A stretch of DNA of 49,610 nt, from the NCBI GenBank assembly GCA_036348995.1, contig GCA_036348995.1_4855.1. One strand, given 5' to 3'. The notes under the pieces were generated by a model that worked only from the letters and a program-made list of their open reading frames with translations, was not told where the DNA came from and ran no database searches. The position numbers were made by a program, and so were the translations under genes. Origin of the DNA: Escherichia coli. Lineage in GTDB: Bacteria; Pseudomonadota; Gammaproteobacteria; Enterobacterales; Enterobacteriaceae. Shown piece by piece: positions 386 through 49,610 of this stretch. Numbering within the stretch: position 1 is the stretch's first letter; each line of letters begins with the position of its first letter.

Positions 386-904
386 ATGCCAAACCATGTA
401 ACAAACAGAATCACGATTGTTTGTGCTGACAAGCAAAGCATTGATGAATTTAAAGATGGATGTATTACCAATGGTGCCATTGATTTTAATAAAATAATCC
501 CATTGCCACCATTTATCGCAAATGGCAATGGTTTGACGGTCGGGAGCAGAGAGGATGGTACTGGGCGTAATTGGTACAAATTCCACCTGGATAAATGGGG
601 AACGAAATGGAATGCTTATGATTGCTCAATTGTAGAGCAAGAAAATAAAATGATTATTACATTTGATACTGCATGGTCAGAACCTGAAGAAATAGTACGA
701 GAAATCCACAAATGGTTTCCTGAATTTATGTTAACACACGAATATTTTGATGAGGGTTGGGGTTTCTTTGGGTGTAAAAGATATGGAGCGCTTGGTATAT
801 TTGGAGGTACATATAAGGATAGGGTGGAAAATGAAGATTTATTTATGAAATTGTGCATTGAATTAAAAGGATACAATCCGGACGAAGATGAGGATGAAGA
901 ATAA
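386..904 (+). CDS. hypothetical Trp-rich protein with poly-acidic C-terminal tail (DEDEDEE)
   Basis: ORF with SD GAGGTGA 374-380; in-frame ATGs at 368/380/386; stop overlaps next start (TAATG). Confidence 0.55.
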   Translation: MPNHVTNRITIVCADKQSIDEFKDGCITNGAIDFNKIIPLPPFIANGNGLTVGSREDGTGRNWYKFHLDKWGTKWNAYDCSIVEQENKMIITFDTAWSEPEEIVREIHKWFPEFMLTHEYFDEGWGFFGCKRYGALGIFGGTYKDRVENEDLFMKLCIELKGYNPDEDEDEE

Positions 905-3632: not shown

Positions 3633-4703
3633 TTACACCGCAGTTTGCGTTCCGTAACCGTTGAACACTTTGGACTTACCAGTGAAATCCTTACGGATTT
3701 GCAGGCCCATAGCAGACCACACGAGGAAGTTGAAGTTATCGTGCGGGTTGACGCGAGCTGCCGCATAGGTGGAAACGGGCTGAGCAACACGCGGGCGGAT
3801 GTACATGTCGTTGCGAACATAGCCAACGAAATGGTTGCCAGTCAGCAGGAAGTTGGTGCCAATCTTGCCGATGCGACCATTGCCGAACTGCGTGATGTAC
3901 TGCTCAACTGTGCCACCTTTGAAACCAGCCGCATCAGAATACGGACGCATGAAGCTACGACGTACCGCCGGGGAAACCCACAGAGTCACCTGCTCAAATA
4001 CGTTCTGCGCATCCAGAATTGCCTGGAAATCCTGATTGAAGAAGGTCACGATTTCGTCTGGCGTTGCGGTTTGCAGGTCGATATTCAGGCCGCTGGAAGC
4101 ATTCAGGTTAACCTGAATAGTGTTCGGGTGGTTGGTGATACCATAGCCAGTGTAAACGCCGTTCACGTTCAGAGTCTGGTCGCCAGTCAGCAGATACTGC
4201 GCCATGTCTGAACGCAGATTAAAGGTGACGTTAGCCTGATCGTCCAACAGTGGGTCAAAACCTTCAGACTGCATACCCAGCAGTTCGCGCCATTCGCGAC
4301 TGTAGCCAGTCTTGAAGATTGGAATCACATCACCAGTGTAATCGTAGCGAGTTTTATCCAAATCTTCCGGTTCCTGACCAGACAGGGTGCGCACAACCTT
4401 GCCAGCATCGGAAGCAATGCGGCTGATTGCCACAGTCTTACCAATGTTGATGTTTGCCGCGATACCCATCAGGTCAGCCATCATGTCCTGACCAGCTTCG
4501 TTGCGGAAAACGCGGGTGGTTACGTTGTCCACGTCGCGCCAGTAATCTTTCGTTACCAGTGCGGTAGCGTTCACACCGTAAGTTTTCGCCAGTTCAGCTT
4601 CTGCATTGCAGAACACCTTACGGTCGATGGTGAGATGTTTCCATTGGTCAGCCACCACTGCGGAGTTGGCTACCAAGTCTTTGGTAAAAATAATCTTTTC
4701 CAT
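3633..4703 (-). CDS. major capsid protein (putative)
   Basis: 356-aa ORF in lambda-like order protease/scaffold - decoration - capsid; no specific motif recognised. Confidence 0.6.
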   Translation of the reverse strand: MEKIIFTKDLVANSAVVADQWKHLTIDRKVFCNAEAELAKTYGVNATALVTKDYWRDVDNVTTRVFRNEAGQDMMADLMGIAANINIGKTVAISRIASDAGKVVRTLSGQEPEDLDKTRYDYTGDVIPIFKTGYSREWRELLGMQSEGFDPLLDDQANVTFNLRSDMAQYLLTGDQTLNVNGVYTGYGITNHPNTIQVNLNASSGLNIDLQTATPDEIVTFFNQDFQAILDAQNVFEQVTLWVSPAVRRSFMRPYSDAAGFKGGTVEQYITQFGNGRIGKIGTNFLLTGNHFVGYVRNDMYIRPRVAQPVSTYAAARVNPHDNFNFLVWSAMGLQIRKDFTGKSKVFNGYGTQTAV

Positions 4704-23287: not shown

Positions 23288-23911
23288 TCACCCTATTTCA
23301 CATATCATATAAACTTTCCTCATTAGGCCGTCAAACAGCATTGGGTGTATAGAATCACATAACCCCTTCATTTGCTTTGCTTGCTTTATCTTTTCATTCT
23401 TCCATGCCTGATGCGCTTCAATCACCGAACTGAAATAGCCTAAAAATACTGTACGACCATTACCATCACCTATGTGCGCCTGATAAGCGCCAGAACACTT
23501 ATTAAATGACACACCTATAGGCAAGTCACCTCTCGAGGCATTCCTTGCTGTCACGAAGTTGTTTAGGTGTGGAGGAACGTAAACACATGCTTCAGGTGAG
23601 TAAGTCAAATTACCCGGAATCAATATATCCTTATCAAGGTGCCACCCTTCGACGTAATGGTTCTTCCACCACAAATTAAAGTTTGAAAACAGCAGCCACT
23701 CATTACAACAAGTAACATGCTCATAGGTTTTGTGTTGTTTTTTGTATTCATCATCAAAACACCTCCTGAGCATTTGATACCATTGGCTATATCCATAATG
23801 CTGCACCTTTTTACCATCAACTTTCATCGCCACACCGAAGCCACAATCATTAACTCCAACACCAAATATTGGCTTTCTTTTCCCTTTCTTTATATCTCTG
23901 TTAAGCTCCAT
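23288..23911 (-). CDS. divergent HNH/AP2-like endonuclease candidate
   Basis: C-terminal AP2-like GVSFNKCSGAYQAHIGDGNGRTVFLGYF; WHLDKD...SPEACVYV core. Confidence 0.4.
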   Translation of the reverse strand: MELNRDIKKGKRKPIFGVGVNDCGFGVAMKVDGKKVQHYGYSQWYQMLRRCFDDEYKKQHKTYEHVTCCNEWLLFSNFNLWWKNHYVEGWHLDKDILIPGNLTYSPEACVYVPPHLNNFVTARNASRGDLPIGVSFNKCSGAYQAHIGDGNGRTVFLGYFSSVIEAHQAWKNEKIKQAKQMKGLCDSIHPMLFDGLMRKVYMICEIG

Positions 23912-24038
23912 TTTTATGGAGAGATTTTTCTTTTGCATTTCTTTTCCTCATGGCCTTTAGTCTGCAATATGGACAGCAGTACTTCTTGTCACTTCTGCAT
24001 CCTGGCAACAGTTCTTTCCCGCACATCAAGCACTTCAT
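23901..24038 (-). CDS. zinc-ribbon microprotein (about 45 aa)
   Basis: MKCLMCGKELLPGCRSDKKYCCPYCRLKAM from hand translation. Confidence 0.3.
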   Translation of the reverse strand: MKCLMCGKELLPGCRSDKKYCCPYCRLKAMRKRNAKEKSLHKNGA

Positions 24039-24141
24039 TATTAATCCTCACAATAAAGATAACACATAGCTGTTATCATATCAAGATGATAATGCAAGCC
24101 ATTATCACAATAAAAATATCAAAAAGTGATAGCTTTCCCGG

Positions 24142-24324
24142 TCAGAACACGATAATCAGCTCATCCATTACTCTTCGCTTGCCTTCACCATTAAACACGC
24201 GCACAACGCGATTTACGCGTACAGATTCCATTGCATTGCGTGCCTGCTTGCTCATAAAGTTCTGCGCGCCAACGTGACCGAGTTCCTGTTCAAGCTTCTC
24301 ACGACGATAGATAGTCTTTGCCAT
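24142..24324 (-). CDS. hypothetical early protein
   Basis: ORF track. Confidence 0.4.
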   Translation of the reverse strand: MAKTIYRREKLEQELGHVGAQNFMSKQARNAMESVRVNRVVRVFNGEGKRRVMDELIIVF

Positions 24325-24504
24325 TTGTTAAACCTCATAAGAGTTAATGATTGCCTTAATGCGACGGCGATACCACTGCATGATGTGTTCGTTATGCCAG
24401 TTGCTCATTCTGTTACTCCTTATACCCTGATTTAGAAACTGCCACTGCGATAATGATGAACGCCACAATAACCAGACTGGCGATGAATTCGAATGATGCG
24501 CCTG

Positions 24505-24651
24505 TCATTTACTTAACCCATACGCCGAGATTAAAGCCTGCATTGCTGCATTCCAGAATGCTTCTGCAGGAATACTGTTGTTTGTGCGCTCAACTGCAAT
24601 GCGTGCCATAGCCTGTGCATCTTCAAATTCTTCACGGTCTTTGATTTTCAT
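24505..24651 (-). CDS. first gene of leftward early operon (48 aa)
   Basis: SD GAGGGTGA then ATG at 24651 (minus); hand translation. Confidence 0.4.
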   Translation of the reverse strand: MKIKDREEFEDAQAMARIAVERTNNSIPAEAFWNAAMQALISAYGLSK

Positions 24652-24681
24652 TTCTTCACCCTCAGTTGTTTCGATAAGTTC

Positions 24682-24710
24682 AATCTACATCAGTTGTGAT
24701 TCTACGTCAA
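24682..24710 (-). promoter_or_regulatory. leftward early promoter TTGACG-N17-TAGATT
   Basis: on minus strand: TTGACG at 24705-24710, TAGATT at 24682-24687. Confidence 0.55.
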
Positions 24711-24720
24711 CACACAGAGA

Positions 24721-25310
24721 AAGAAAAATCACGACTAAATGTTAGTGAACGTTAGCTTACATATATAGTTACATACATTACTAATAGTAACCTTTGTTTA
24801 TTACCTCTATAAAGTATATTAAGATCTTCTCTATATTTATTATAGATATTAGTAGCTTAGGTCGCAGAAACACGAAAACCAGCAATTAAGCTGGTTGATT
24901 TCAGTGGTTTCTATTTTTTTCTAATTTCTTCTACTTTCCGACCCGATGGGAAATGAAATTCCTTTTGTTTTTAGATGCTTCCAAGCGTTTTATTCTCTAT
25001 TTTCTATTTCCCGAGAATCATTTTGGTTTTTTTTCTTTCCAGAATTTTTTTTCAAAAGTTCTAGGTTTTTAGGAATTTAGAAATTAGAACTTAAACCTTT
25101 GATTTTACTGGTGTTCCATTTCCCAGTCATCTGGGAAATGGAAATTTGCATGTTATTGAAAATCAAGGTGAATTTCTATTTTCCACACCTTTATACTCCC
25201 GTCTGGAGGAATCGTCAATACTCATAACCAGAACAATCGACGTGGAATGTGTTGACTGCTCGTTTGTATTTTTTTATACTTTTATCAAAGTTCAGATCAA
25301 TGTGAGGCAA
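24721..25310. promoter_or_regulatory. AT-rich divergent control region with iterons and perfect inverted repeat; candidate origin
   Basis: no ORFs; repeated TTCTATTTTC and GGGAAATG(A/G)AAAT; 11-bp IR CCATTTCCCAG-TCAT-CTGGGAAATGG at 25116..25141. Confidence 0.45.
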
Positions 25311-25313
25311 GTG

Positions 25314-25532
25314 ATGAGTATTGAATACCGATTCGGGAGTGCGATAGCTGAGGTTTATGATTTTGTGTGCAACATGTCGGTTGGTGAAGAAAGGGTTTTT
25401 CATTTTGATGAATTTGTTGTTAATGATTTATCCAGTTTCAGAATGAGCCTTAGCAAGATTGCTGCAAGGAATGGATGGATGTTTAAGACGCGGGCTAAGG
25501 AAGATGGTTTGTGGGTGAAGAGAATTAAATGA
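25314..25532 (+). CDS. hypothetical early protein (paralogue of next gene C-terminus)
   Basis: ends ...GLWVKRIK; next protein ends ...TAYVERIK. Confidence 0.45.
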   Translation: MSIEYRFGSAIAEVYDFVCNMSVGEERVFHFDEFVVNDLSSFRMSLSKIAARNGWMFKTRAKEDGLWVKRIK

Positions 25533-25547
25533 AGAGTGGGGTGAGAT

Positions 25548-25970
25548 ATGAAGAAGTACTACATTGAGGTGGTTGGCGCTGGTGGTAAGAAAATGTATGT
25601 CTGCGGTCGCTATGGTTTTGTGCATGATTTTGCCTATGCAAGCCGCTTCAGGACAAAAGAAGAGGCTGAGAAGAATTTAGCTAAACGTAGAATGAGTCTT
25701 TCATACAAAATAAAATGTGATGAGCCACGAGTGAAAGAACTGGCTGTATCTGTACGTGAATCAAAGAGGACCATGGATGATGAGGCTCGCGGTTTCGTCT
25801 GGAGGCTTGGAGTTGGGCGTGGAAAGCATTTTGTTTTTGATGGATCTACCTTAATAAGTACGGCTAATCAGTTGCAAAAGGCTTTATACAGAGTTGGAAG
25901 GGAGTCAGAAAAAAAATTCAGTGTCAAGATGGTTACGCGCGATACTGCTTATGTGGAGAGAATTAAATGA
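25548..25970 (+). CDS. hypothetical early protein
   Basis: SD GGGGTGAG; ATGA overlap with primase. Confidence 0.45.
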   Translation: MKKYYIEVVGAGGKKMYVCGRYGFVHDFAYASRFRTKEEAEKNLAKRRMSLSYKIKCDEPRVKELAVSVRESKRTMDDEARGFVWRLGVGRGKHFVFDGSTLISTANQLQKALYRVGRESEKKFSVKMVTRDTAYVERIK

Positions 25971-28300
25971 TGATTGGTTATGAAGATTACCGTAGATGCA
26001 GCTTCCCTATTATCGACATTCATCCAATGGATGAGGAGCGCAACTGTACTTGTGGCGATCCGGAATGCAAGGCTGCGGGAAAACATCCGATTATGAGTAA
26101 CTGGCAGCTTGGTATCCAGTGGGATGATGAGCAGATTGAAAGCATGGCTAAGTATGGCAAGTTACAGTCATTCGGTGTTCTTGTGAATGGGTACCTTGTT
26201 GTTGATATTGACCCAAGAAATGGCGGTGATGATGGATATGAGGCGTTGTGTGATGCGTTAGATATTGAACTTGCTGATGAATCTGGTTTTACGGTTAAGA
26301 CTGGTGGCGGTGGTCGTCACATCTATTACAAACTTCCTGCTGGTGTGAAGTTGCGATCTCATGACAGGAGATTTAATGGCATTGACTTTAAATCATCTGG
26401 TTTCGTTATTGGCTGCGGCTCTTTCCATAAGTCAGGTAACTTTTATGAAGCTGAGCATGGTTCTCCTTCTGAGATAACTGAAGCTCCGTCTCAACTTATT
26501 GAACTTCTGCTTCGCCCTGAGAGAGCAGAAGATGAGGTTTTCTCGCTTGATAGTAAAAATTACAGCATTGCTGAAATGGAGGACATGCTCAGGTACATCA
26601 AGGATGGCGATGAGTACAATCCGTGGATAAATGTTGGGATGGCTATCCATGAAGCAACTGACGGTAATGGGTTTGACCTGTGGAACAACTGGTCATCACA
26701 GTTCAGCAAATACCGACCAGAAGAGATGGATGCCAAATGGCATTCCTTTGGTAAAGATGGAATTGACGACAAGATAACCGCAGGCACTCTTGTTTATCTG
26801 GCACAAGAGGGCGGATGGGTAAGGCAAGTAACTTTTGAGGCTACGCCAGAGGAAATTGAGAAACTTGAGTCTTTCGAGCGGGAAATGGCAATGGGTGTTG
26901 GTGAATGCCCTGTAGAGTACAAAAGCGTTGATGTCCGTTATCCGCCGGGTTTTGTTGGTCGCCTTGCTGCATGGATTAATAAGAACTGTGCAGAGAAGCG
27001 CGAGAATATTGCAGCACTTGCCGCACTACATGCCGCATCCATGATTTGCGGAGCGTCATCTGATATTTACCTTACAAACAGGAAGGCTTTACCAAATCTT
27101 TTTGCTGTTGGCATTGCGGGTTCCGGTTCAGGTAAAGGTGATGTTCTTGCAGCACTACAAAAGATAATTGATTGCTCAGGATTGAGTAAGACTGTCGCCG
27201 GTAAGATACGTTCAGAGCGTGCGATATATGAAGGTCTGTGTGCTAACCAGATGTTTAATATCATCATGGATGAGATTGGGATAAAACTTGGGAGTGTTGT
27301 TGGTCAGAAAGTAAGCGAATACAACATGGCAACCGCTGGTGCGATCATGGAGGCTTACACGTCAGAAGTTCTTTATTGTGACCAGCGTGTTACTGAGGAT
27401 TTCATTAAGTCTTTCGAAAAGAGAAAGGCTATGCTGTTGATGGCTATTGAGGAAAATGAGATACAGGCAGACCCAGTTGACATTAAGTGTCAGTTTGATG
27501 ATGTGATAAACAGAATTGACGGAGCTATAAGGAATCCATTTTTTTCAATCTTTGGTGTGTCTACTGATGATCAGTTTAAGCGCCTTATTACTGAAGAAAA
27601 CATTAAGTCAGGTCTTATGGGGCGCGCAATGATTATGCAGGAGTTGCAGGAGATTGCTGACGAAAACGAAAGCGTCAACTACTGTGATCTACCTATGGAT
27701 ATGCAACTGACCATAAAAACAATAATAAATGGCGGAACGGCTGGGCACAAAAACTGGACAGATTCAATCATCAGCCAAAAAGAAAGAAGGATTATAAAAG
27801 CTACACCTGAAGTTTCTCAGCTCGCTAAGGAGTTCTTCTCATGGATTAAAACCGTTGCAAGAAAGCATGTAGAAAACGGTACTGGTTATCACCCATTGAT
27901 AAACAGATGTGCTGTTAAAGTTGCAAAGATTGCTGGAATTCTCGCGTGCGATACCGGCGTCATAACCATGGAGCACTTGCGATATGCAGTAGCATTAACA
28001 ATTAAATCAACAAGCGACCTGATGATGCGTGCTGACAGCATTGCCGGAGCGAAGTCTAAAGCTATGGAGGAAAGGGTTGAAGGCCTGTTCTCCATGGTTA
28101 AAGAACATGTGAAACGCGGAATGACTAAAACAGCAATGATTAAAGGGGTAGCAAAAGATGGTGGATATAAGCGCGCAGATGTCGAGAGGTGTGTGGATAA
28201 GTTGCTATCCGATGGGGTTATTTGCATTGATGAAAGCGCAAAAAGAACATCCAACAGAGCAGTTATTTACAAATTAACAAATGATGAGGTTGAAATATGA
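25967..28300 (+). CDS. DNA primase (PrimPol-type N-domain) with C-terminal P-loop domain
   Basis: VVDIDPRNGG, GGGGRHIYY, GSGSGKG. Confidence 0.75.
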   Translation: MMIGYEDYRRCSFPIIDIHPMDEERNCTCGDPECKAAGKHPIMSNWQLGIQWDDEQIESMAKYGKLQSFGVLVNGYLVVDIDPRNGGDDGYEALCDALDIELADESGFTVKTGGGGRHIYYKLPAGVKLRSHDRRFNGIDFKSSGFVIGCGSFHKSGNFYEAEHGSPSEITEAPSQLIELLLRPERAEDEVFSLDSKNYSIAEMEDMLRYIKDGDEYNPWINVGMAIHEATDGNGFDLWNNWSSQFSKYRPEEMDAKWHSFGKDGIDDKITAGTLVYLAQEGGWVRQVTFEATPEEIEKLESFEREMAMGVGECPVEYKSVDVRYPPGFVGRLAAWINKNCAEKRENIAALAALHAASMICGASSDIYLTNRKALPNLFAVGIAGSGSGKGDVLAALQKIIDCSGLSKTVAGKIRSERAIYEGLCANQMFNIIMDEIGIKLGSVVGQKVSEYNMATAGAIMEAYTSEVLYCDQRVTEDFIKSFEKRKAMLLMAIEENEIQADPVDIKCQFDDVINRIDGAIRNPFFSIFGVSTDDQFKRLITEENIKSGLMGRAMIMQELQEIADENESVNYCDLPMDMQLTIKTIINGGTAGHKNWTDSIISQKERRIIKATPEVSQLAKEFFSWIKTVARKHVENGTGYHPLINRCAVKVAKIAGILACDTGVITMEHLRYAVALTIKSTSDLMMRADSIAGAKSKAMEERVEGLFSMVKEHVKRGMTKTAMIKGVAKDGGYKRADVERCVDKLLSDGVICIDESAKRTSNRAVIYKLTNDEVEI

Positions 28301-33416: not shown

Positions 33417-33425
33417 TGATAAAAA

Positions 33426-33465
33426 TAACCCCGCTTCGGCGGGGTTATTGTTAAATGGTTTTTAT
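33426..33465. terminator. bidirectional intrinsic terminator
   Basis: hairpin TAACCCCGC-TTCG-GCGGGGTTA with T-runs on both sides. Confidence 0.7.
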
Positions 33466-40679: not shown

Positions 40680-41250
40680 ATGAAACTGCAAACATTAGAG
40701 TTCCCGTACGGAGAGATCACTTTCGACCGTGAAAATTTTATTAACGTTAATGAGCTTGTTAACCAGATGAACCGCTGGAGACTGGATAATGGGATGGGGA
40801 CAAGAGAAATACGACAGGTAATGGCAACTGATGCATTTAAGGTCTTGCTTGCATCTGGCTGTATATATAGCAGAGCAATACAGCACATATTTCCATTTCC
40901 TTGTCATCGACCGATTCATTACGCAGAGACAGGTTGAGTTGCGAAATATTGGTGCGGTAAGTTTCGTGGAACTTAATGCTGCCGTCAGCAGAATGCTTGA
41001 ACGCACTGAGGGTAGAATTGGTCATAGTGGGCATTTCATTCAGGTGGCAAAGTCAGTCAAGGAGTCGATAGATATCCGTGAAGTTACTGGGTTTGACACA
41101 TGGGACTCTCAGGATGCAAAAACTAACCAGTTACGCAGTGATATCCAGAAGTCTCTTGTCACACTTCTGGATATGGAAGCGGTCAACTCATGGGATGAAC
41201 TGAAAGAAACGATACCGAGGGTCGTACGTAAATGCGCTGATAAGATTTAA
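40680..41250 (+). pseudogene. plus-strand moron gene split across two frames at a TATATATA run
   Basis: frame A 40680..40937 and frame B 40831..41250 overlap by 107 nt; junction near 40872-40880. Confidence 0.3.
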
Positions 41251-47287: not shown

Positions 47288-47364
47288 GGACGCGTAGCTT
47301 AATTGGTTAAAGCAACCGAATCATAATCGGATGATTGAAGGTTCAAATCCGTCCGTGTCCACCA
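47288..47364 (+). tRNA. tRNA with anticodon CAU (Met or Ile2-type), CCA encoded
   Basis: hand-folded cloverleaf: 7-bp acceptor stem, D-arm GCTT/AAGC, anticodon loop ATCATAA, T-loop TTCAAAT. Confidence 0.75.
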
Positions 47365-49192: not shown

Positions 49193-49609
49193 TTATAGAT
49201 TTGAATCAGCGAAAAAACAATGGCGACCACGCCAAGAATAATGTCCAATTTCGCCGCCCCATTTAAAAGTGATGGAAAGGATGAACAGATGGATGCCGAT
49301 AATAATAAATGCGTACTGCGCATGAAGCGGCGTTTCTACAGGCGTGATAAATTCCCATACGAATGACTCTATCGCAACCAGCCATTCGTAAAGGCTCATT
49401 GTCAGCACGCAGAGCGCCATCTTTGTACTTTTGCGCAGTGCAATAGCCGGGAACAACCAGACCATAGACTGCGCAAGGTAATACAAATATTCGGCGGGAA
49501 ATGAATCAGCAAGCACCCATCCAAGATACACAGACATCGCCATTACCGGAATGAACACCAGAAACGCGACCATGCCAGTGCAAGCGAAACCCAGCACATA
49601 CATGATCAT
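49193..49609 (-). CDS. multi-pass membrane protein, 5-prime end runs off the window into the terminal repeat
   Basis: 3-4 hydrophobic segments; in copy 1 an upstream in-frame ATG lies at 148-150. Confidence 0.4.
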   Translation of the reverse strand: MIMYVLGFACTGMVAFLVFIPVMAMSVYLGWVLADSFPAEYLYYLAQSMVWLFPAIALRKSTKMALCVLTMSLYEWLVAIESFVWEFITPVETPLHAQYAFIIIGIHLFILSITFKWGGEIGHYSWRGRHCFFADSNL

Positions 49610-49610
49610 G
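49484..49610. repeat. terminal direct repeat, copy 2 (identical to 1..127)
   Basis: exact 127-nt match to window start. Confidence 0.95.

Follow-up and report, generated by a model that had tools for sequence, protein, structure and literature searches.

The replication origins of the Staphylococcus aureus pathogenicity islands (SaPIs) are recognised by the Rep and PriRep helicases: iterons on either side of an AT-rich centre, close to the rep gene, are bound by a C-terminal winged helix of these proteins (PMC9371898). The SaPI5 helicase carries a fused primase, and SaPI origins and their Rep proteins form mutually specific pairs; the SaPI Rep prototypes have been placed in the superfamily 3 (SF3) helicase clade, apart from the MCM clade (PMC9371898). 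Proteins of the PriCT-DUF3987 type are helicases with a small C-terminal domain (PMC11724360). Here we analyse a non-coding gap in a stretch of 49,610 nt from an Escherichia coli assembly (GCA_036348995.1, contig GCA_036348995.1_4855.1; the whole stretch is called ‘the window’), whose closest matches are siphophages related to Skate and Sf11. The gap lies 0.65 kb upstream of the gene for a 777-residue primase-helicase, here called PrimPol. It is probably the replication origin of the phage, laid over the divergent early promoter region. We read it in this way because its repeats change between phages in step with one putative DNA-binding domain of the neighbouring PrimPol.

Two other kinds of origin provide points of comparison. 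The alpha protein of phage P4 unites primase, helicase and a C-terminal winged-helix origin-binding domain in one polypeptide and recognises repeated short sequences; P4 needs a second, distant repeat cluster (crr), and its primase is not known to be an archaeo-eukaryotic primase (AEP) Prim-Pol. The iteron origins of theta plasmids (pSC101, R6K, F and P1) have both direct and inverted iterons, an AT-rich unwinding element beside them and a site for integration host factor (IHF).

Results

An array of repeats in the gap

The initial annotation, which had proposed a candidate replication origin here, named two repeated units; these are the two strands of one motif, GGRAAATRGAAA. With up to two mismatches allowed, the motif has 10 sites in 24898-25250 (spanning 24908-25184), compared with 0.94 ± 0.98, and a maximum of 5, in 500 dinucleotide-preserving shuffles of that segment, and the GGGAAAT core occurs four times against 0.17 expected in the same shuffles. 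The units are thus present well beyond chance. TTCTATTTTC repeats stand at 24995 and 25174, with degenerate copies in 10-bp phase at 24908-24939, and GGGAAATG(A/G)AAAT occurs at 24948 and 25133. Many of the sites are tandems of a 7-nt unit, such as GGGAAAT-AGAAAAT-AGAGA or GGAATTT-AGAAATT-AGAAC. The whole window has 31 matches to GGRAAATRGAAA, 10 of them in 24898-25250; no cluster was found outside the gap, only isolated single matches, including one near-match inside the PrimPol gene at 26880. Each of seven genomes compared has a single, non-coding repeat cluster, the result for class A (see below) resting on the GGGAAAT pattern. Coordinates are collected in Table 1.

The inverted pair of iterons had been recognised as a perfect 11-bp palindrome at 25116-25141. 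It is real and longer, with 13-bp arms; no other inverted repeat in the genome is perfect over 13 bp or more, and none of this length arose in 30 first-order Markov simulations. The corresponding inverted pair of relatives is imperfect and is made of their own type of iteron. A search for the exact palindrome in IMG/VR and the JGI metagenomes gave no matches. Elsewhere in the genome, perfect inverted repeats with arms of at least 11 bp are found only at 33424-33449 and 41141-41174, and these are probably terminators.

The + strand is 49% T over 24898-25100, a bias that favours chance repeats and would suit a non-functional AT-rich spacer in which the repeats merely reflect low complexity. However, the shuffles never reach the observed repeat counts, and the gap keeps its layout and length across phages whose repeats belong to different classes (see below). 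Shuffles, class-partition scan and layout comparison together effectively refute a chance origin of the repeats, and we give a mere spacer scarcely any probability.

The repeats covary with one domain of PrimPol

The close set consists of six GenBank phages with the same 777-residue protein (gmqsjt-1, ECO111 5-P, Sf11, ECO95 1-6-1, Sa179lw and YX3973), in which the gap measures 640-670 nt; in further contigs from IMG/VR, ENA and Logan it measures 550-950 nt. The repeats of these phages fall into classes. Class A, GGGAAAT(G/A)GAAA, is found in the window, gmqsjt-1 and ECO111; class B, GGGAAGCG, in Sf11, ECO95, L014, L015, L025, L031, L032 and L037; and class C, G(G/T)(C/T)A(A/T)(A/T)TAG, in Sa179lw, YX3973, L027 and L029. 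Further repeat types are GACTTTAG (L017, L026 and L033) and TCTGTAAA (L036).

Among the seven close genomes, PrimPol identity is 92-99% overall and 96-100% in the helicase core (residues 286-700). For residues 706-777, identity is 97-100% within an iteron class as against 78-85% between classes. Class B phages whose PrimPols are about 70% identical to that of the window still pair the wing motif KRTSHNVIIYKL with GGGAAGCG. The covariation was also sought genome-wide, in 1371 segments of 40 residues from open reading frames (ORFs) shared by all seven complete genomes, a segment being taken to sort by class if every within-class identity exceeded every between-class identity. Only 8 of the 1371 do so, and all lie at 28067-28276, which corresponds to PrimPol residues ~701-770 (plus shadow ORFs on the same DNA).

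Several other products were considered as specificity determinants and rejected, namely gp1, the 140-residue protein, gp3, the Cro-like protein and the PrimPol N-terminus, since their types cross the iteron classes. Between gmqsjt-1 (A) and YX3973 (C), the PrimPol N-terminus and gp3 show 99% identity; gp1 of Sf11 (B) and gp1 of Sa179lw (C) are 85% identical; and the Cro-like protein is 91-99% identical across all classes. The close-genome comparison found no class-specific gene, and none specific to class A. It is by covariation only that cognate specificity of the SaPI kind is seen here, residues 706-777 sorting exactly by iteron class.

An AlphaFold model of full-length PrimPol (119-sequence alignment; mean predicted local distance difference test score, pLDDT, 87.7) places helices at residues 700-716, 721-732 and 736-748 and strands at 752-754 and 767-770, so that residues 700-770 are predicted to follow the winged-helix order of helices and strands. 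A profile of the domain gives weak matches to winged-helix families, including MCM C-terminal domains. On the predicted fold, then, PrimPol has the C-terminal winged helix of a SaPI-type initiator-helicase. The helicase core matches MCM-type AAA+ proteins and DUF3987. A homologue search with the C-terminal 138 residues returned three fragments only, and phmmer with the whole of PrimPol found no match among PDB sequences.

A constant layout around changing repeats

Fifteen relatives with this PrimPol keep an ORF-free region of 550-950 nt with the layout ‘< >’, ‘<<’, homopolymer-run or AT-rich centre, ‘>>’, ‘< >’. The array thus runs from an inverted pair through two leftward repeats, the centre, two rightward repeats and an IHF match to a second inverted pair and a last repeat. 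Iterons on the two sides of the T-rich centre are opposed (‘<’ at 24994 and 25001, ‘>’ at 25072 and 25079), and the same pattern is present in 8 of the 10 relatives of classes A, B and C that were mapped. The first unit of the rightward pair (25072-25083) was scored by the motif scan and the second by eye; they are the adjacent ‘>>’ of the layout comparison. More widely, the order in relatives is promoter, conserved AT block, terminator hairpin, repeat array, rightward promoter. The right part of the gap (24898-25250) evolves fast and diverges freely except in the repeats, its layout being kept; a BLAST search with 24898-25313 against 50,697 phage records found no significant match save a weak one in the promoter region, and none among plasmids. 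A single cluster, class-switching repeats, a constant layout and a matching PrimPol C-terminal domain all support the original proposal of an origin at this place.

The centre of the array is marked in relatives by paired homopolymer runs (C8-10 then G8, or G7 and G6) or by T runs, and in the window by two T8 runs. Such runs were noted at ~5570-5650 in L001, in the intergenic regions of L031 (303-352), L032 (684-730) and L035 (213-270), and at 25027-25052 in the window; they could be hot spots of sequencing error.

In more distant relatives (L017-L026 and L033-L036, with 58-77% PrimPol identity and including the Yersinia phage vB_YenS_P400), the PrimPol-gp3 block is inverted with respect to cro and sak4. 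A repeat-rich gap of ~600 nt lies downstream of the PrimPol-gp3 pair in this second gene order.

Table 1. Genes, repeats and candidate signals in and around the gap (window coordinates)
Feature	Coordinates	Strand	Remarks
48-aa gene	24505-24651	-	left border of gap
Non-coding gap	24652-25313		662 nt, between leftward and rightward early genes
Leftward early promoter-like site, TTGACG-17-TAGATT	24682..24710	-	sigma-70-like consensus scan
Conserved AT-rich block	24711..24876		candidate DNA-unwinding element
Hairpin, AACCAGC-AATTAA-GCTGGTT	24877..24896		A-tract before, T-rich tail after; scored as minus-strand terminator
Three degenerate repeats, TTTCTATTTTTT / TTTCTAATTTCT / CTTCTACTTTCC	24908..24939	-	10-bp phase
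Iteron, GGGAAATGAAAT	24948..24959	+	
Tandem iterons, minus-strand reading GGGAAATAGAAAATAGAGA	24994..25012	-	left of centre; equivalent ‘<<’ pair in relatives
T-rich central spacer	25013..25071		T8 runs at 25027-25034 and 25045-25052; inside second least stable 100-bp segment
Tandem degenerate iterons, GGAATTTAGAAATTAGAAC	25072..25090	+	right of centre; orientation opposite to 24994-25012
IHF-consensus match, WATCARNNNNTTR (AATCAAAGGTTTA)	25092..25104	-	
Perfect inverted iteron pair, TTCCATTTCCCAG-TCAT-CTGGGAAATGGAA	25114..25143		13-bp arms, 4-nt spacer
Iteron, GGAAAATAGAAA	25173..25184	-	
Rightward promoter-like site, TTGACT-17-TATACT	25252..25280	+	10/12 consensus positions; for gp1-PrimPol operon
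72-aa gene (gp1)	25314-25532	+	right border of gap
140-aa gene	25548-25970	+	
777-aa replication protein (PrimPol)	25967..28300	+	Prim-Pol (AEP), PriCT_2, MCM-like AAA+ helicase (DUF3987), C-terminal winged helix
Proposed iteron-recognition winged helix, aa ~701-777	28067..28297	+	

Base composition and a conserved meltable block

The segment was first described as AT-rich, free of ORFs and set between a leftward early operon and rightward replication genes, and this holds for the full 662 nt. Its GC content is 0.325 compared with 0.455 for the genome, and the genome's ten lowest-GC 400-nt segments are all found at 24626-24901. Two ORFs within it (44 and 42 residues) have no Shine-Dalgarno ribosome-binding site and give translations unrelated to those in relatives; they were rejected as genes. 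A tRNA scan found no tRNA in the gap region.

Nearest-neighbour duplex energies rank 24752-24851 as the least stable 100-bp segment in the genome (-102.6 kcal/mol; genome mean -137 ± 7.1), followed by 24989-25088. Easily melted DNA is thus found both at and beside the iterons, as in SaPI origins. It is in the conserved block left of the hairpin, and not in the repeat array, that the DNA is most meltable. All phages with this PrimPol module, of any repeat class, share this block at ~90% identity. Phages with a Skate-type replication module do not have it and share only the first ~60 nt of the gap, with the leftward promoter, a stretch kept in ~150 Skate-like phages, among them phages that have another replication module. 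Therefore the AT block, the hairpin and the iterons travel with the PrimPol module. The block is a strong candidate for an unwinding or loading site common to all classes, with the array providing specificity.

The hairpin and a possible transcript

The 7-bp hairpin of the initial annotation is present as written, but it had been placed at 24889-24908 and lies 12 nt further left. Its stem is kept in relatives by compensatory changes (CCAGC/GCTGG, CCCGC/GCGGG and CCCGG/CCGGG), next to a conserved ACACGAAAA flank. With a conserved A-tract on one side of this compensated stem and a T-rich tail on the other, the element resembles an intrinsic terminator acting in both directions; the predicted hairpin has the G+C-containing stem and T-tract of such terminators. 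It looks like a conserved bidirectional terminator-like element rather than an origin hairpin.

A compensated terminator in the middle of a divergent region, with no obvious mRNA to terminate, and a left block unusually well conserved for non-coding DNA would both be expected if the main product of the gap were a non-coding RNA. This could be a leftward transcript of ~200 nt, from ~25095 to the terminator (24896->24877), or a rightward small RNA that comes from the conserved block and ends at the hairpin, the repeats being secondary. A weak leftward promoter-like site, ATGACT-17-TAAAAT (25130->25102, minus strand), overlaps the perfect inverted pair and, with the terminator ~200 nt downstream, could define a short A-rich origin transcript. 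However, the -35 element of this site, read by eye, is unconserved in gmqsjt-1, a consensus scan found no good promoter in the conserved block, and the sequence that such an RNA would cover diverges freely apart from the repeats. A permissive Rfam scan of 24000-26000 gave chance-level matches only (best score 23 bits, E 0.62, the gathering threshold being 80). An RNA as the main product seems to us quite improbable. An RNA ending at the terminator is compatible with origin function and could be part of it, and a dedicated origin transcript ending there may be a further candidate element.

Promoter-like sites and possible host-factor sites

Promoter-like sites flank the segment in both directions and both are kept in relatives, which bears out its description as a divergent control region. 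The rightward site is kept in gmqsjt-1, ECO111 and ECO95 and has equivalents in Sf11 and Sa179lw. The flanking sites raise the question of whether the gap is a transcription control region only, its repeats being operators for the PrimPol C-terminal domain or for another regulator and replication starting elsewhere, for example in or downstream of the PrimPol gene. In iteron plasmids, inverted iterons act as autoregulatory operators, and the weak leftward promoter-like site coincides here with the perfect inverted pair. A start downstream has a parallel in the Sulfolobus plasmid pRN1, where a 166-bp sequence downstream of the gene for the ORF904 replicase (PMC2777425) is reported to be essential in cis (PMC4234260).

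However, a large array opposed around an AT-rich centre and adjoining the least stable DNA is typical of origins. The nearest iteron is ~70 nt upstream of the rightward -35 element, and the array is ~200 nt from the leftward promoter, beyond the terminator. There is no second iteron cluster elsewhere in the genome and none at other promoters, and the near-invariant Cro-like regulator cannot explain class-specific repeats. We consider it unlikely that the gap serves transcription alone. Autoregulation and origin function are compatible, and the inverted pair may additionally serve autoregulation. An operator region of the CI/Cro type was considered separately and set aside: the Cro/YdaS-like protein does not vary with class, and there is no iteron in the cro-sak4 intergenic region.

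All seven close genomes have the IHF match at a homologous offset, and L029, L031 and L037 have one as well; in class C phages it is inverted. The chance of at least one such match per shuffled gap is 0.135. IHF may act here as a host factor. A single 8/9 match (TTTTCCACA) to the DnaA box consensus TTATCCACA lies at 25179-25187, overlapping the last iteron, and reading by eye showed it to be unconserved in gmqsjt-1.

A conserved motif upstream of the leftward promoter, TGTTAGTGAACGTTAGCT at 24740-24757, has no other copy in the window and may serve the invariant Cro-like protein as an operator. In distant relatives the same part of the gap, close to the early promoter, contains a palindrome (TAGACGTCTGGACGTCTA or similar).

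Genome setting

The assembly is circular: nt 1-127 of the window recur exactly at 49484-49610, a k-mer-sized overlap, which makes the genome 49,483 bp. By megablast, its closest matches are Skate/Sf11-like siphophages of Salmonella, E. coli, Shigella and Klebsiella (~88-93% identity over the matching parts), and no identical record was among them. Small leftward early genes lie to the left of the gap. To the right of the PrimPol gene are a 131-residue gene, then a leftward Cro/YdaS-like helix-turn-helix gene and a Sak4-like ATPase gene.

The Sf11 record (MF158038.1) has an exact 335-bp terminal repeat (3388-3722 of L003, equal to 1-335 of L011) that starts in the homologous gap and ends in gp1, as might be expected if the gap were a genome terminus or packaging site. 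However, Sf11 is alone in having such a repeat here, the records of the other phages in the group start at unrelated points, the overlap in the window is located elsewhere, and the Sf11 repeat may itself be an assembly overlap; no paper on Sf11 termini was found. The large terminase of a relative belongs to the Terminase_3 family, which is usually associated with headful packaging, and no segment of the terminase region partitioned positively by class, in contrast to the PrimPol C-terminal domain. We regard a terminus or packaging site here as very improbable.

Some features of the wider genome were noted in passing. The cumulative GC skew has its global maximum at 4234, opposite its minimum, and this may mark a terminus or merely another switch of gene orientation. 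In the leftward early operon, a 46-residue ORF (24328-24468, minus strand) matches the Pfam family Nuclease_act (PF08133, T4 Stp; E 3.6e-8) and phrog_6763; the T4 Stp family comprises the activator of the PrrC anticodon nuclease, and the ORF may encode an anti-restriction peptide in this siphophage. An HNH homing-endonuclease-like gene (23288-23938, minus strand; phrog_953, E 7e-74) lies among the early genes and has no counterpart at the corresponding place in gmqsjt-1. A tRNA-Met (CAT) gene is present at 47288-47364 (plus strand); Sf11 has tRNA-Ser and tRNA-Arg genes instead.

Discussion

Beyond the observed anatomy, non-randomness and conservation of the gap, the iteron/domain covariation and the predicted fold, we infer that binding, melting and initiation take place there. 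PrimPol, made from the rightward promoter ~0.65 kb away, would recognise through its C-terminal winged helix the GGRAAATRGAAA iterons, which are opposed around the T-rich centre and include the perfect inverted pair. Bound subunits would assemble into a ring, as in self-loading initiator-helicases, and the ring would open meltable DNA close by, in the T-rich centre (25013-25071) or in the conserved AT block (24752-24851). The same protein would then prime synthesis through its Prim-Pol domain. The IHF-like site beside the inverted pair may serve to bend the DNA, and the bidirectional terminator hairpin would insulate the iteron array from the leftward early promoter.

Several points weigh against an origin, or against the specificity proposed for it. 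Binding of the C-terminal domain to the repeats could serve autoregulation and not initiation. The covariation rests on three well-sampled classes, hence on few independent switches, and the genome scan was limited to ORFs with tblastn matches in all six other genomes. YX3973 (GGCATTTAG) and L027 (GGCAAATAG) have identical C-terminal domains, and their repeats differ at two central bases. L036 shares the wing motif of the window but uses TCTGTAAA, so the wing is not the sole reader of specificity. The gap of the second gene order (L017, L033, L035 and L036) is downstream of the gene, and the repeats of L017 and L035 are less tidy. Cumulative GC skew, a check suggested with the initial annotation, has its global minimum at 25238, inside the gap; this is consistent with an origin but is confounded, since gene orientation flips there too, and is not independent evidence. 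No paper was found on the origins of Skate/Sf11-like phages. The seszw genome-reduction study is uninformative here because it targets genes, in a phage with a different replication module.

A more tentative idea, which we hold to be possible rather than probable, is that the array and the winged helix form an exchangeable ‘specificity cassette’. Near-identical phages would repeatedly have swapped only the ~350-nt iteron array and the ~70-residue winged helix, with the unwinding block, terminator and layout remaining constant. Such swaps, if they occur, would divide co-infecting phages into replicon types that are mutually incompatible or do not interfere, and might allow escape from origin-targeting interference by satellites or host defences. 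The type of origin proposed here is already well known, and this apparent exchange of a matched iteron and winged-helix cassette is its most interesting aspect.

Most virulent siphophages have no mapped origin, and this holds also for the widespread Skate/Sf11-like phages, which are being developed for biocontrol. The locus provides a concrete, testable candidate origin together with its proposed recognition domain and with natural specificity classes. It also offers an enterobacterial example of a PrimPol/MCM-like enzyme that is apparently initiator, helicase and primase in one polypeptide. More generally, where non-coding repeats and one protein domain covary across mosaic genomes, an origin can be matched to its initiator without experiments. 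In practice, the locus may be of use for minimal replicons, for testing incompatibility between phages and for engineering Skate/Sf11-like phages more safely.

Two familiar types of origin were tried and do not fit. In the lambda type the origin is inside the initiator gene; the present array is non-coding, and the PrimPol gene holds one isolated near-match. A DnaA-dependent origin of the theta-plasmid or oriC type is not indicated by the one unconserved 8/9 box, which was read by eye without a systematic scan.

Among mobile elements, related MCM-like proteins include BcMCM of a Bacillus cereus prophage (PMC2715239, PMC3273815) and the Cch helicases of SCCmec (PDB 5dgk; PMC7581432). The ORF904 helicase of pRN1 is SF3, unlike the MCM-like core of the phage protein. 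For BcMCM and the Cch helicases we know of no description of an iteron origin with covarying specificity.

The theta plasmids share with the gap its direct and inverted iterons, AT-rich element and IHF-like match, and here too the inverted pair could act as an autoregulatory operator. In contrast to these plasmids, the phage has no Rep_3-type initiator and no conserved DnaA box, and the proposed initiator is itself helicase and primase. Like P4 alpha, PrimPol combines primase, helicase and a predicted C-terminal winged helix, but there is one repeat cluster per genome instead of ori and crr; a P4-type origin was rejected, as the matches outside the gap are isolated and single.

The closest known system is, in our judgement, the staphylococcal SaPI ori with its self-loading initiator-helicases Rep and PriRep5. 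No sequence homology was detected between PrimPol and the SaPI system, and the two differ in several respects. The helicase core of the phage protein is MCM-type AAA+/DUF3987, not SF3, and its primase is an AEP Prim-Pol; the repeats are ~12 nt long and built from 7-nt sub-units, compared with 5-6 nt in SaPIs; and the array lies upstream of its operon (downstream in the second gene order), in a virulent enterobacterial siphophage and not a satellite. What they have in common is the arrangement: short iterons near the rep gene that run in opposite directions on the two sides of an AT-rich centre and a ring helicase that doubles, on the phage side by prediction, as initiator through a C-terminal winged helix.

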